NCBI RefSeq assembly: GCF_006345805.1
Contig: NC_043000.1
Location: 40,238,001 to 40,302,000 of the forward strand
Source of the DNA: Octopus sinensis
Taxonomy: Eukaryota
Length of the DNA: 64,000 bases
Reading direction: 5' to 3'
Made by a program: the position numbers and the translations under genes. Of the stretch, positions 1,922 to 50,427 are shown piece by piece. Position 1 is the stretch's first letter. Each line of letters opens with the position of its first letter. The notes beneath the pieces are model-generated. The model was not told the DNA's origin and searched no databases. It saw only the letters and a program-made list of their open reading frames with translations.

Positions 1922-4100
1922 CTACTTATATGCACTAAATGTATGTTTCTGCCAATGCTTACATCTGTATGCTCGTTCTATAACCGTGTTTACTAGAGTA
2001 TTTTTAGAAAAAATAATGAAAAATAGCTCAGAATTGCAGAGAAGACAGAATTTATTGCCTTTGTCATATGGTATCGAAATTGAGAGGATCAACCATTCTA
2101 AATGAAATTGTTCATTGTGGTCTTTTAAATCCCAAATCAGTTTGCTGAGACCGGTACTATTCCGTTTATTTCTATCCCTAAATGTTGAGTAATGGATAGA
2201 AATTATTTTAGATAACTCTAACGATGTGCTTCCAATGTAAAATCGTACTTTATTACGAGTACTGATTATACACTGGTATATAGAATTTTTAATCTTAGAG
2301 TTACTTGACATAAATTTAATTCTATTGGAATTGACTTCAGATACAATAACCTTGTTATTAATATTTCTAGTGGGTTGGATGGTATTAGCTAAATTAATGT
2401 TAGTATTAGTAAATGTATTAATATTTAACAGTTTGTTATTATGAGAGGATATAATTTGCAAGAGATTTTTTGTGTTTGAAAAACCTGTCCTAACCTTATG
2501 TGAATTAATTATAGAGTAATATCTAGAATTGTTTGGAAAATTCCTGGCAATAGCTTGACGAAACAGCAGTGGTAGATTAGATTTAATTTGTCTCCCGTAA
2601 GGAATTATTAACCAAATATTTTTACTAGTATTCATAGCGTAATTACTTTTGAAGGTGTTATACTTACTTTTAGATCGATAATAGGGGATTAAATAAGGGT
2701 TATCTGCCTTCATTCGCTTTGTATCGGTGCGTAAGTTATGTTTGTTATCAATAATTCTTTTACGACTAGAAATCTTATCTACATTATTGAATTTACAATT
2801 AGACTGAGCAGAATCAATGTAGAACATTTTTTTCTGTATAACCTGCTTTGATTAAGGCAGAGTTATAGAATTCAGCGTTATTATTGAAAATATCAACATT
2901 AGCAGATAATTTAGATAATCTAATGAAATATTCTTAACTAAATTCTTAGTAATTGCTCCAGGATGATTACTAAATTTGCTAATGTACTTAAGATTGGTCA
3001 ACGGTTTATGATATGGGAAGTAAGAGTCACTGTGTAAATTAAGCGTAATATCTAAAAAGTTGGCCTTCGTCAGATCGTCATCAAAAACGATTTTAAGCCC
3101 ATTCTACTGAAAAAATTAACTAAACTATTCTTAACCCTTTGTACCTTTTGGTTGGAAACATTTTGGAGGTAAAGTAAACAATCATCACGATATAGACCTC
3201 CATAAATGTTAGGGAACTCTTCAGCCATTTCAAAAAGAATATATATACAGACCAAATCAGCTATCTGTGCTGAATCAGAACTTCCCATTGGTATATCGAA
3301 ACTATCTGGTGTGTCTTTACGGACCCACAACTTATCATCAAATTTAATAATAGATCTTCTGGCTGCCAACACAACATTAATTTCTTCTCGGGTGAGACCA
3401 GCTTTGTTATGAGCAAGCCAAAGTGCCTTATTAAGTACTATCGGATTAATAGACGAATAAAAATTGGAAATATCAAACTGGGTAAACTTTGTACTCACCT
3501 TACTGTTAATAGACCTAAACAAGTCAACTACTTCAAATGAATTAGTCCATAAACTAAGTTTTAATGTTTTGATTAAATTAGGAATATATTTATCTAGTAT
3601 ATTTTTACTAAGGATACCGATGTCAGAGCTAGAAGGGCAGATGAGCCTTAATGATGGGTTAGTAAAAAAATTTGGTTTGTGATCCTTCAAAATGAACCGA
3701 GGTTGCTTATGAACAAGTGGTTCTGTCTTCATTTGTAGGTTATATTTCTCCATGATTTTCATAGCCTCAATGTTGGCTTTCTTAAGTATTCTTTTATCAG
3801 CAATTTTATACTTTTTCTGAATTTCTTTTTTAAGTAATTCCAAATAATAGTCTTTATAAAGTTTGTACAGATTTCCAGTCTTATCAGATTGAACCAACAT
3901 AGTATCCATAGAATTGATTTCTTTGGTGATGTTGCGAAGATACCTCAGATGTTTATTTCTTAGTGGTGATCGTTGAAATTTTACATTTCTCACAATGGAC
4001 CAGAGATCATCTTCAAATTGCTTCAACCTTGGGTTAGGCGGCGGACTATTTTTAGATTTAGATAACTTGTTGAACTCAGATGTTTTATCATTAGTGTGTT
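1922..4100 (-). pseudogene. PLE RT + GIY-YIG endonuclease ORF with three 1-bp frameshifts
   Basis: ORFs 3070-4149 (RT) and 1922-2827 (SIY...FYIGSTS...STGLSKLIW...CLLC...RCKH) are joined by NFLDITLNL..PYHKP..SNHP..AGY. Shifts occur near 3093, 2921 and 2830, with no in-frame stops once corrected. Confidence 0.88.
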
Positions 4101-4298
4101 GTTCTGAGCTATTTTCATTATTTTTTTCTAAAAATACTCTAGTAAACACGGTTATAGAACGAGCATACAGATGTAAGCATTGGCAGAAACATACATTTAG
4201 TGCATATAAGTAGTCTCTATCATTATATATAATTTAAACTTTAAACATAATATATAATTTTTTGTTAAAATGTCGTATTGACGAGTTTCGTCTTTTTC

Positions 4299-34775: not shown

Positions 34776-36254
34776 CATACATACATTCATACATGCTATG
34801 TGAACATAAATATTCTTTCTGCAATATTGAAGCTGATATACGCAAAAAAAGACAGTTTTACGGATTCTTGCCCGACCTACAGAGAAGACGTACCCACTTC
34901 ACCTCTCCAATCAAGAGCATCGAAAAGCAAAATCATTCGTTTTGATTTTACTCTTCACTTAAATTTCTTTTTGTGTTGTGAATTCACCAAAATTTTAAGC
35001 CAAAACATGCCAAACGCCTCTTAGTGGACTCAAGGAAAAAGCGTGTGATTCAGAAACAAAATTAGAGATAAAAACCAAACTGAATGAAGAAAATCGGTTT
35101 CACCCCTTAAGCATAATTCCGATTTGATCTAGCAGACGCCCTCCACCACCCTAAAGGATATGTGCTGCGCTAGTCATGTTCCGAAGGCATCTGCATTTAT
35201 AAAATCTAGTCATCATCAAAAGAAGATATGGGTTAAATGAGGAAATGGAAACATTTTTAGTTACATAATTGGAGGACTAACTTAAAGAGAAGAATACCAC
35301 CCAGCCTTTTAACTAAACAGACTAAGGAAACAATTTGTGTGACGCACAGATAGAACGTGCCTACGATTCCATCAACACGAAGCACGTCACAGATAATTGA
35401 ATGTTTAAAAAAAGTGTCATTATTTCCACAAAGTAAAGGTCAGAGGCGAGGAAGGTAATGGAGAAGGTGCAGTTATATTTGTAAAAAGAGTTGCGTATTG
35501 TCATTGCTTGTAAGATATGTTTGCTAGAGCATATATTTAATTTTGATCATAACTGGCTTATTATAGAGGAAGAGTATATCTGAATACTCTTTAAGAGAGG
35601 AAAACCATGCCAGGTTTCAAGATATTTCAAGATTGTAAGACTTGACGTTTCATAGGGAAAATGTGGTTAAATTTCAATACATTTAATATATATATACAAT
35701 CTTTAAATGTTAAGCTTGCTCGTCAGGTTCAAATGAATCAGTGTTAAAAATAATATTTCAACATAACTTTTTTTTCCAACGTAAGCTGCATTAAGTTAAA
35801 GGTTGTGTATATATTAATGCAGATATGTAAGTAATTTATTACTCATAAAATATAATAAAATAAATTATCCGTACATGGTTATTAAGCTGTGAAACAATTG
35901 TCGTTAAATAAGAATTTCCAATGGTAAAATAAATTTTATCTTGGTATATTTCTCTCGTTTTTATAAATTTATAACACTCTTTATATTTTTCTTTCGTATC
36001 GTACTCCGTATTCTATGTTTTGTAGAATGATACATTAAAGAGCTTTTTCACGTGTACCACCGGATTAGCTGTATCCATATATTGTGACTTAAATTTATAT
36101 ATATATATAAACAATTTATAAGTAAGAGCAAAAGAAAAAAATTTCTAATGCCAAAATATGCCGAAAATAGACACAACGTCAATAACCATGTAATTTATCA
36201 CTACAAGCACGCGTCTCGAAGAAAGCCGACAGAAATTTCTAAACAATCCCGTTA

Positions 36255-36315
36255 TTACCATATCGGACCCGATTTCAGAGTTAGTTCATAAGAACCTTCC
36301 CTTCATCAGTGATAA
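36255..36315 (-). ncRNA. Type I hammerhead ribozyme, canonical core
   Basis: Reverse complement of 36792-36852 with one stem II substitution. Confidence 0.8.
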
Positions 36316-36791
36316 ATGCGGCCAAGAAATAAGTGAAATACTTACTTATACCCACGAATGAAGTGAACACTAAGTCATGAGCACAATTAAGTACCCCAAA
36401 TATATCCAAAATAGAAACTCTCTAGCCCATCTCGAGACACGTGCGATTCGAACTGAAAAACTCTCGTAAAGTGGGAGAGTCTTGAAGTGAACACTATTAA
36501 ATGAACATCTAATGTAGGATAAAATTTTTCGAAAGAAATTCTGTCAATGGCCAGCATATAAAAAATATCTTTAAAGGTTAAATTTATAAACAATTTATAA
36601 GTAAAGGCAAAAGAAAAAAATTCTAATGCCCAAATATACCGAAAATAGACACAACGTCAATAACCATGTAATTTATCACTACAACCACGCGTCTCGAAGA
36701 AAGCCGACAGAAATTTTAAAAAAATCCCGTTATTACTATATCGGATCCGATTTCAGAGTTAGTAAGTATTTCACTTATTTCTATGCCGCAT

Positions 36792-36852
36792 TTATCACTG
36801 ATGAAGGGGAGGTTCTTATGAACTAACTCTGAAATCGGGTCCGATATGGTAA
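36792..36852 (+). ncRNA. Type I hammerhead ribozyme, canonical core
   Basis: TTATCA-CTGATGA-AGGG..GTTC(TTAT)GAAC..CTCT-GAAA-TCGG(GT)CCGA-TA-TGGTAA. Confidence 0.82.
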
Positions 36853-37074
36853 TAACGGGATTTTTTAGAAATTTCTGTCGGCTTTCTTCGAGACGCATGC
36901 TTGTAGTGATAAATTACATGGTTATTGACGTTGTGCCTATTTTCGGCATATTTTGACATTAGAAATTTTTTCTTTTGGCCTTACTTATAAATTGTTTATA
37001 AATTTAACCTTTAAAGCTATTTTTTAATATGCTGGCTATTGACAGAATTTTTTTCGAAAAATTTTATCCTACAT

Positions 37075-37124
<50 letters not shown>

Positions 37125-37238
37125 TGTATGTATGTATATTGTATACGTATATATATATATTTAAATATATATGTATGCATGTATGCATGTATGTATGTAT
37201 GTATATATATATATTATATATATATATATATATAATAT

Positions 37239-37269
<31 letters not shown>

Positions 37270-37280
37270 ATATATGTATA

Positions 37281-37500
37281 TGAAGGAGAGGAGCTTTCTC
37301 CGTCCGGGTTGTGGATCCGTGGAACAAGCTGCCAGACGAGATGGTGATGATGCCGACGACCGCTTTGTTCAAAGCCTCCCTTGACCTCAAGTGGCCTGAA
37401 CTCTTTACATGAACACCACCCTGTACTTAACTCCATGTCCCCCTACATGGCCTTGCTATTTGCTTTTGAGCCAAATTAACTAATTAACTAACTAACTAAC
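37281..37500 (+). mobile_element. CR1-clade LINE 3' end
   Basis: RRGAFSVRVVDPWNKLPDEMV..FKASLD*; (ACTA)n tail. Confidence 0.85.
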
Positions 37501-37623
37501 ATATACATGTTTGCATGTATATGTATATGGTAACATACGTAGCATTCATATATATATATATATGTGTGTGTGTGTGTATATATATGTGTATATATATATA
37601 TATCTGTATATGTATATACATAC

Positions 37624-37669
<46 letters not shown>

Positions 37670-37854
37670 ACTTGAAAATGCTAATTACCTGTTCAAACCC
37701 CTTCGCCTGGGATTTCAATACATGTAACTGAAACTTTGCCACCAACAATTTTTTTCTTTTGTGTCACACGAACCCAATGATACTATTGACCCTCAACCCG
37801 GTGATTCTAACCTCTTTGTCATCTTGCTCCTCCAAGTGAAACAGTTCAACTCCT

Positions 37855-38723
37855 CCGTCACCTCTAAATGTTGTATATATTTAGTCTAATTAATATAAGT
37901 AGTTTTGCATGGACATCATTATCCTATGTGGTTTTTGTTCTTCTTTATTTAAAGATTTACTTTGCGAGAGAATTGACTTCTAACAATTTCGTTGGTTAGT
38001 GTCTGAAATAGATTTATGTAAAGGTATGGAGGTGTGGAATTCAACATTGTATAGATGAAAGTTGAAGGTTAATTTAGCCAGAAAGGAAAAATAAATATAT
38101 AAATAAATAGATAAATATAAATGAATTAAAATGTCGGTTTGCAGAAGAATCGGGAAAGATGTAGTGGAGGAATAAGAGGGAGGCAAGAAGAGGAAGTAGT
38201 TTGTTAGAAACTCAGTGAGGCGTCCAATTAAATACACCAACATCCAAATGCACTCTGTGATATAACAGGGAGGAAGGTGAATGGTAGTGATTGTGATGGA
38301 GGTGGGAATGGTAATGCCGGTCGTCGTCATCGTGGTGGTAGTTACCGCTTTGGTGCTGGTGATGATTGTGGTTATGATAGTGGTGGTGGTGGTGGGGTTG
38401 ATTGGTGCTTGGATTGATAGATGAGGCTTGTTGCTGAGTTTATTGGCAGAACGGAAGCCCCATCACGAACAAACGATTACGACTAGCGAACATGGAACGT
38501 GTAGGGCGTGTGACTTATCGTAACACTCAAATGTGTATGTATATAATGTGTGTGTGTGTGTTTGTTTGTTTATGTGTGTGTCTGCGTGTATGTGTGTGTG
38601 GTGTTCATATGAACTGGGGGAGACAGCTGACACACACAGAATTCTATAAACTTGCAATTACCACATACATGTTCATACATACACACACACATATATATAT
38701 TTACAACAGCTATGTTTGCGCGC

Positions 38724-38777
<54 letters not shown>

Positions 38778-39560
38778 GCGTGTGCGTATGTCAATAAAGA
38801 GAGAAGCACACAGAAATAGAAAGATAAATAGATGGAGCTATAAATAGATAGAAGAAAATAAGTAGCGGGGTCGATTCGTTCGACTAAACTTCTTCAAAGC
38901 GGGGCTCTAGCATGGCCGCAGTCTAATTACTGAAACAAGCAAAAGATTAAAAGATAAAAGATATAATAATTTAATTTAAGTTTTTCTTTGGGGAGTTCAA
39001 GGCGGTTGTTAAAGCGACAAGAGATTTTGAGTTCAGAGAATTGGCGGTGTTTGTAAATATGACGTTGGGTTGGTGAGTTGGTTGATCTGTCGATGTATGC
39101 CCCCCCCACAAGTGTGTACATCTTTTTACATAAGAATCTCAGATGACCAATTTTTGAAATGGCTTATGAATTTTCACTGTGCCACTTCAGAGAATCCGCG
39201 TCAGTTTCTTTTGCTCTTTTACCGTCACCTTTAAGCGTTGTATGTATTTAGTGAAATTAATATAAGTTGTTTTGCAAGCACAACATTATCATCCTATGTG
39301 TCTTTTTCTCTTTTGTTTTTTTTCAAGGATCTGTTTTGCAAAGGAATTGACAATTAACTATTTCGTTGGTTAGTGTCTGAAATAGATTTATGTGAAGGTA
39401 TGGAAGTGTGGAATTCAGTACTGTATAGATGGAAGTTGAAAGTTAATTTAGTACGCCCCCGTTCCCAAAATTAAAAAAAAATTAAATAAAATGTCAGTTT
39501 GCAGAAGAATCGGGGAATATATAGTGTAGGAGGAGGGAGGAAATATGAGGAAGTTGTTTG
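37855..39560. repeat. Two diverged copies of an approximately 340-bp unclassified repeat (37855-38200, 39222-39560); partial third copy near 40470-40555
   Basis: Shared CGTTGGTTAGTGTCTGAAATAGATTTATGT...GCAGAAGAATCGGG. Confidence 0.75.
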
Positions 39561-49921: not shown

Positions 49922-50008
49922 TCAGTACAATTGTTTCATACGAAGAACAGCTTTATTAAAAGCTCCAAATATTGCAGCAAATATAAGTGTCCCGTATTCA
50001 TCAGCCAA
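49922..50008 (-). ncRNA. Type I hammerhead ribozyme, canonical core, long branched stem II
   Basis: TTGG-CTGATGA-ATACGGGAC...GTTCTTCGTAT-GAAA-CAATTG-TA-CTGA; internal AGCTTT/AAAGCT hairpin. Confidence 0.78.
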
Positions 50009-50427
50009 AACACATATGAGTTTTCCAAACATCCTAGGGGGTGAGGCTACACTCATGAAGTATCGAAGAGAGTTATATAAACAGCAAAGTTAGATTGTAA
50101 GCAGACTCCAAAAGGTCTCTAATGATGCACAGTTTTATAAAAGGTTTTTTAAAAAGTTTGTTAGCTTCACAGAAAAGGTAAATCCATCCATAATAATGCC
50201 GGCGTAATTTCCGGAGATATGAGGAGATATTTCCTACTCAGAGACGATGAATTTATCCATAATAATGTAGATGTAATTTCCTGATATATGAGAAGATGCT
50301 GATCACACTTCTGTTCATTTCACAAAACTACTATGTTGAAAGAAGAGATTGTCTATATTGGCTAAAAGGAGTCAGTGAAGCAGAAACTAACCAAATGTAT
50401 GTATGTATGTATGTATGTATGTATGTA

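Follow-up and report, generated by a model that had tools for sequence, protein, structure and literature searches.

A dispersed 478-bp hammerhead repeat of Octopus sinensis with head-to-head insertions in TA microsatellites that point to a Penelope-type enzyme

Non-LTR retrozymes are described as short repeats with a type I hammerhead, whose RNA occurs as circles in coral, mussel and axolotl (PMC7229834). In the part of the literature seen here, a 2026 preprint treats them as non-autonomous derivatives of Penelope-type elements (PLEs), arguing from co-occurrence and terminal-repeat kinship (bioRxiv 10.64898/2026.07.22.740005). The same text reports cleavage for one of nine predicted Xenopus dimers tested (Li, Clavereau and Pollet 2026, 10.64898/2026.07.22.740005); as eight of the nine did not cleave, a hammerhead motif is no proof of self-cleavage. 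For the hammerheads of PLEs, cleavage as a dimer has been described (review PMC6765202). PLE copies, in the account of Craig et al. (2021, PMC8557442), form 5'-truncated partial tandems with an adjacent inverted copy and a tail of 30-40 bp that is often found at one end only, and those of the Naiad group have (TA)n targets. The PLE protein PAc, as described by Frangieh et al. (2024, PMC11167929), is a predicted dimer that cuts and extends both strands. It uses mainly uncut RNA and starts at two neighbouring RNA sites, which delimit the tail and are not homologous to the target.

The window, by which we mean the whole 64-kb stretch of DNA analysed here, contains at 36100-37079 a direct repeat, of period 478 bp, together with an inverted copy; sequence and alignments place both outer ends of the arrangement in TA tracts (Table 1). 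Self-alignment places the direct copies at 36131-36285 and 36609-36763, at a spacing of 478 bp and an identity of 93%, in good agreement with the copies A and B about 480 bp apart of the initial annotation. The inverted copy C had been said to join B directly, and it does so through three shared nucleotides. The proposed B-C hairpin of about 250 bp is likewise present, with arms at about 36507-36763 and 36822-37079, a loop of 58 nt and about 93% identity. A closer inverted pair was overlooked, namely A-C (36100-36346 and 36761-37006; 247 bp, 95%), which is the main contributor to the predicted fold of the locus. Folding back of the whole locus has a predicted energy of -456.6 kcal/mol.

The 478-bp unit is non-coding, being overlapped by no frame of 110 aa, and GC content across 36001-38000 is 0.32. 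The earlier statement that no reverse transcriptase (RT) is encoded at the locus holds: tblastn with two PLE proteins gave no match in the 64-kb window, and the only PLE-like RT/GIY-YIG frames in it, read by eye, lie 32 kb off at 1922-4233. Without an ORF for RT and GIY-YIG endonuclease, 36100-37079 is rejected as an autonomous EN+ PLE. The distant frames, on the minus strand and 387 and 309 aa long, read like a PLE RT with a C-terminal GIY-YIG domain, and relatives of them occur in several of the loci fetched from the genome. A further direct repeat of the window (37855-38140 and 39222-39500) has a spacing of about 1,370 bp and is 77-85% alike.

Table 1. Features of the locus in window coordinates; P and D are the proximal and distal sites at which arms of the family end.
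Feature	Position	Strand	Basis
(TA)n target microsatellite, proximal (P) end of sense arm	36093..36109		sequence
Sense arm, 1.39 units (B + spacer + A), truncated 5' within hammerhead stem II and ending 3' at site P	36100..36763	-	alignments
Complete type I hammerhead A: stem I UUAUCA/UGGUAA, CUGAUGA (from 36309), bulged stem II, GAAA, self-complementary stem III AUCGGGUCCGAU, predicted cut after 36261	36255..36315	-	motif scan, folding
478-nt monomer, cleavage site to cleavage site	36261..36738	-	folding vs shuffles
Hammerhead remnant B: 3' stem II strand, GAAA, stem III, cleavage site, mutated stem I strand; no CUGAUGA	36733..36763	-	sequence, alignments
Head-to-head junction, 3-nt microhomology AGT	36761..36763		alignments
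Inverted arm C, truncated 5' some 37 nt upstream of its core and ending 3' at distal site D	36761..37079	+	alignments
Complete type I hammerhead C, core from 36798, predicted cut after 36846	36792..36852	+	motif scan, folding
Tail of about 78 nt between sites P and D, at C-arm end only	37001..37079	+	alignments
(TA)n then (TGTA)n target microsatellite, D end	37076..37135		sequence

The hammerheads attributed to A (minus strand) and C (plus strand) are both complete type I motifs by motif scan and folding. Rfam returned no hammerhead family for 36090-37080, where all nine rows are microRNA-type fold-back matches below gathering score, so that the call depends on the motif scan and folding; among the 150 matches listed, of 258, for the whole 64-kb window there were again sub-gathering fold-backs of microRNA type and no hammerhead family. 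Copy B had been singled out for its perfect stem III palindrome, and ATCGGATCCGAT is indeed found at 36740-36751. As a family feature it is ruled out, since its GGATCC centre is a private change, present in one among 100 listed of 135 genome matches. B is otherwise a coreless remnant. The form of stem III typical of the family, AUCGGGUCCGAU, is self-complementary too, by way of G-U pairs. Two consecutive complete hammerheads are absent from the locus, B having no core, and we file it as a truncated offspring copy rather than an active retrozyme. With one core per strand, a 478-nt monomer cannot be released from it by double cleavage in cis.

We searched the 2.72-Gb genome for the family and obtained 3,864 first-look candidates; exact patterns matched 62 (core), 135, 441 and 2,299 (an 18-mer near P) times, and controls 0 times. 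A profile of eight natural units, applied to 162 fetched loci (numbered with the prefix L), yielded 257 arms, of which 170 are unique after removal of duplicates and edge cases. The 3' ends of 146 of these 170 fall within two narrow zones about 78 nt apart, zone P (77 arms; 36105 in the window) and zone D (69 arms; about 37079 in the window). Of the 170 arms, 121 run into (TA)n of at least three repeats, including 69 of the 77 that end at P. The 5' ends are scattered and form one small hump, some 90-100 nt upstream of the cleavage site. Most arms measure 0.2-1.8 units, the longest (L131) about 2.5 units, and long tandem arrays were seen at none of the sampled loci. The 164 segments compared diverge from the column majority by a median of 5.5%.

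The hump comprises 23 of the 170 arms, at model positions 130-158 (about 36340-36370 in the window), and coincides with the apex of a long predicted hairpin. Some of its 5' ends are directly flanked by TA tracts; the hump may possibly mark a transcription start or pause.

The period of about 480 bp was initially taken to suggest the monomer size of a non-autonomous PLE or retrozyme, and a genome-wide search for tandem monomers was suggested. The reading is supported by a non-coding, dispersed and partly tandem family with a unit of 478 nt, in which two consecutive complete hammerheads occur in five of 174 arms (L002, L004, L014, L021, L135). The hammerhead core pattern is intact in 106 of 131 spans. 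The cleavage site is crossed by 135 of 174 arms and is the starting point of four, which suggests that the templates were uncut or re-ligated; because loci were picked by similarity to the 36100-37079 copy or to hammerhead patterns, the sample is biased towards conserved ribozymes and towards arms that span this site, and the figure of 135 is inflated. The 5' ends do not accumulate at the cleavage site (4/174).

Contigs of three sequencing runs, guessed to be RNA, contain family sequence, from which strand, ends, level and locus cannot be read. The 478-bp repeat is present in other organisms too. We found no description of this repeat or of cephalopod retrozymes in the literature searched, though family lists in supplements may include it. 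The dispersed 478-bp hammerhead repeat is a new family of a known kind. Like the metazoan non-LTR retrozymes of the cited accounts, it has a short, non-coding, low-GC unit with one type I hammerhead, many dispersed copies, a self-paired monomer (predicted here) and co-occurrence with PLEs, and it would work like an element of that type. Its 478 bp lie above the 150-450 bp given by Cervera and de la Pena (2020, PMC7229834) and inside the 51-972 bp given by Li, Clavereau and Pollet (2026, 10.64898/2026.07.22.740005). Unlike those retrozymes as described, the family is often arranged head-to-head, and neither long arrays nor a sister PLE terminus were found; retrozymes are also known from RNA circles, whereas the present family is known from DNA and predicted folds.

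Conservation was assessed on 111 segments, from loci found by DNA search, in non-CpG cells. Substitutions affect 14 of 756 core cells (1.9%), compared with 5.5% outside the ribozyme (3.7% without subfamily sites). Subfamily changes are absent from the core; four lie in stems and all keep pairing, one stem II pair being A-U, G-U or G-C depending on the subfamily. The isolated motif is predicted to misfold, with a stem III probability of 0.005 and CUGAU paired to AUCGG, while in a dimer of the isolated motif the double hammerhead is the minimum-energy fold (-40.2 and -36.0 kcal/mol). These folds suggest that the ribozyme works mainly as a dimer by means of its self-complementary stem III. Five natural tandems do not favour the dimer fold, the inter-unit stem III probability being 0-0.30 and the gap 0.8-7.1 kcal/mol (two L131 stretches were left out). 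The palindromic stem III and the predicted double-hammerhead fold of the isolated motif are shared with the dimer-cleaving hammerheads of PLEs and of newt and axolotl repeats, as far as the sources describe them (PMC6765202, PMC7229834). The monomer of the family differs from these in having four possible stem III pairs, which are out-competed by mispairing between core and stem III. As a whole, the sense monomer is more structured than shuffled sequences (z -5.44 linear); in circular form z is -4.36 for the sense and -1.46 for the antisense strand.

At 36100-37079 itself, an RNA that starts at B is predicted to pair the stem III strands of B and A (0.977) and to mispair the core of A, and B offers no core for a second cut. 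Read-through transcripts of the two strands are each predicted to have their hammerhead in a duplex with the antisense arm (mean probability 0.999 and 0.982), which is transcribed first in both cases. Self-cleaving RNA from either strand, as initially proposed, is thus not what the folds predict, and because of this pairing the copy is probably inert; double-stranded RNA from read-through is plausible.

When the arms were grouped, they resolved into 124 insertions, 50 of them head-to-head and 74 single. An arm ends outside P and D in 12 of the 50 pairs; in 36 of the 38 classifiable pairs one end is P and the other D, where half would be expected (binomial p 2.5e-9). In a second sample of 30 further loci, chosen solely by the 18-mer near P and counted by hand, 17 pairs were present: one repeats an earlier insertion, one runs past D, and the other 15 of 15 combine P and D, so that 51 of 53 classifiable pairs overall, and also 36100-37079, follow the rule of one P and one D. 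Small overlaps or gaps mark the junctions at most of the 50 pairs. Arms within one insertion differ by 7.3%, compared with 11.8% for other copies (36 pairs with sufficient overlap), and share more derived sites in 28 of these 36 pairs. Such kinship is as expected from one type of template, and gene conversion could contribute.

We conclude that the locus is a 5'-truncated head-to-head insertion of the dispersed non-coding 478-bp hammerhead repeat, and that a Penelope-type reverse transcriptase-endonuclease, working in trans, very likely placed it in a TA microsatellite. The PLE enzyme would nick both target strands and prime a cDNA from each, one cDNA starting at site P and the other at site D on the same kind of RNA. 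Both would run towards the RNA 5' end across the cleavage site, which would be uncut or re-ligated, end at differing positions and then be joined by microhomology. The fold-back would be a by-product of the insertion. The pairing of one P with one D end and the tail of about 78 nt between them match the footprint of PLEs, with a tail at one end.

Further likenesses to EN+ PLEs (Neptune, Poseidon and Naiad), as these are described, include 5' truncation, a partial tandem, an inverted 5' copy, two 3' end sites, TA-rich targets and a hammerhead with a self-complementary stem III. The family differs from them in having no ORF and a longer tail (about 78 nt against 30-40 nt), and its hammerhead departs from their minimal motif, as given in the cited descriptions, by a canonical core with C3-G8, a long bulged stem II and a 12-nt stem III. 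Sites P and D also adjoin AT-rich, target-like sequence, whereas the PAc starts are reported as non-homologous to the target (PMC11167929). More tentatively, one may imagine that a dimer of the PLE enzyme copies one 478-nt RNA circle, derived from a dimer-dependent hammerhead, at two fixed sites about 78 nt apart, one per target strand, and that kinship to the enzyme's own terminus is not needed; we regard this version as rather doubtful.

The strongest alternative would make the repeat no more than the pseudo-LTR of a coding PLE and its copies products of truncation, a possibility already raised in the initial annotation. The host genome holds many RT-GIY-YIG elements. We examined 72 PLE loci, drawn from 150 scored of 5,029 GIY-YIG candidates, a sampling that leaves some room for such an element. 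No homologous terminus was found in the 72 loci by blastn and the eight-unit profile, and family matches there are inserted copies only (L091/L111/L112, L104, L130). The alternative is favoured by a full-length Neptune-type PLE (L091/L111/L112; L111/L112 at G000:C1:207472484-207480091; the label Neptune-type is our own, from a C-x2-C linker motif), which is framed by direct terminal repeats of 1.67 kb, 99% identical, that contain a family copy. Each such repeat consists of Neptune's own 3' end, flank DNA, the family copy and another repeat, and a family copy of this type is absent from the 19 other Neptune loci able to show it, save for an unrelated match in L130; together this reads as 3' transduction. 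At L139 (4035-5493) an inverted family arm is fused, with no TA tract between, to a decayed Neptune-type RT frame, either by insertion into a PLE or as a template-switch chimera. Against a pseudo-LTR, TA tracts intervene between PLE frames and family copies in L104, L238, L232 and L073, and about 1 kb of other sequence does so in L220. PLE frames also lie near copies in L157, L212, L146, L136, L140, L227 and L230; the neighbours read in detail are those of L139, L104, L238, L232, L073 and L220. Long arms moreover extend into the 478-bp unit before, reaching about 2.5 units in L131, and no PLE frame lies between the same-strand pair of L211, 7.1 kb apart. None of the copies sampled serves as the terminal repeat of a coding PLE, and we consider this alternative improbable.

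Two resemblances between the family and Neptune were set aside: a stretch of 12 nt matching the Neptune 3' region does not form a hammerhead, and a hairpin followed by ATCCTA before site D, common to the family and the Neptune tail, is too short to carry weight. In L126, which belongs to a Neptune-type family with a 781-aa protein, a head-to-head copy has just one arm with a tail, of about 40 nt; this coding PLE thus has the layout of the 478-bp family and serves as an internal control, of a single case. The 781-aa family is abundant and has a conserved hammerhead-like motif (L091:5340-5390 and related loci L114-L130) in which UUGAUAA replaces CUGANGA, with a 4-nt palindromic stem III; the U3-A8 swap in the core is compensatory. 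Upstream lies a 479-aa frame with no Pfam match. An unrelated type I hammerhead motif, with a long stem II and a CAAUUG stem III, is located near a TA tract at 49940-50015 of the window (minus strand), and stem III sequences like it occur in inverted repeats beside PLEs in L092, L114 and L115. Several additional hammerhead types lie near PLE frames in L034/L100, L039, L094 and L109; their stem II is long and their palindromic stem III measures 6 nt.

Spread of the family as DNA, by rolling circle or satellite dispersal with later inversion by repair or recombination, would agree with the short tandem units, and inverted repeats can arise in repair. Fixed 3' ends together with scattered 5' ends, the strict pairing of P with D and the TA at both outer ends are unexpected from later rearrangement, and the sampled loci show no long arrays, which makes this explanation very unlikely. 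Opposed hammerheads are routine among the insertions, both cores being intact in 11 of the 50 head-to-head pairs. The least credible explanation, close to the special cassette initially seen at 36100-37079, is a selected bidirectional self-cleaving or dsRNA-producing regulatory unit: two intact opposed cores and the fold-back of -456.6 kcal/mol speak for it, but the head-to-head layout recurs in 50 of 124 insertions, 11 of them with both cores intact, read-through RNA is predicted to sequester the hammerheads, and an arm divergence of 6.6%, close to the mean of 7.3% over other head-to-head pairs, gives no sign of special conservation.

These findings bear on the route by which animal retrozymes return to DNA. 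To the co-occurrence and terminal-repeat kinship on which the published link between PLEs and retrozymes rests, in the part of that work considered here, the family adds a countable PLE insertion footprint. This footprint and a short RNA with defined priming sites make the model of mobilisation in trans directly testable with purified PLE protein. If the tentative version is true, in which an enzyme dimer copies one RNA circle at two fixed sites, the family would be a minimal trans substrate that shows how retrozyme circles re-enter the genome, and it would explain why PLEs carry a tail at one end only.
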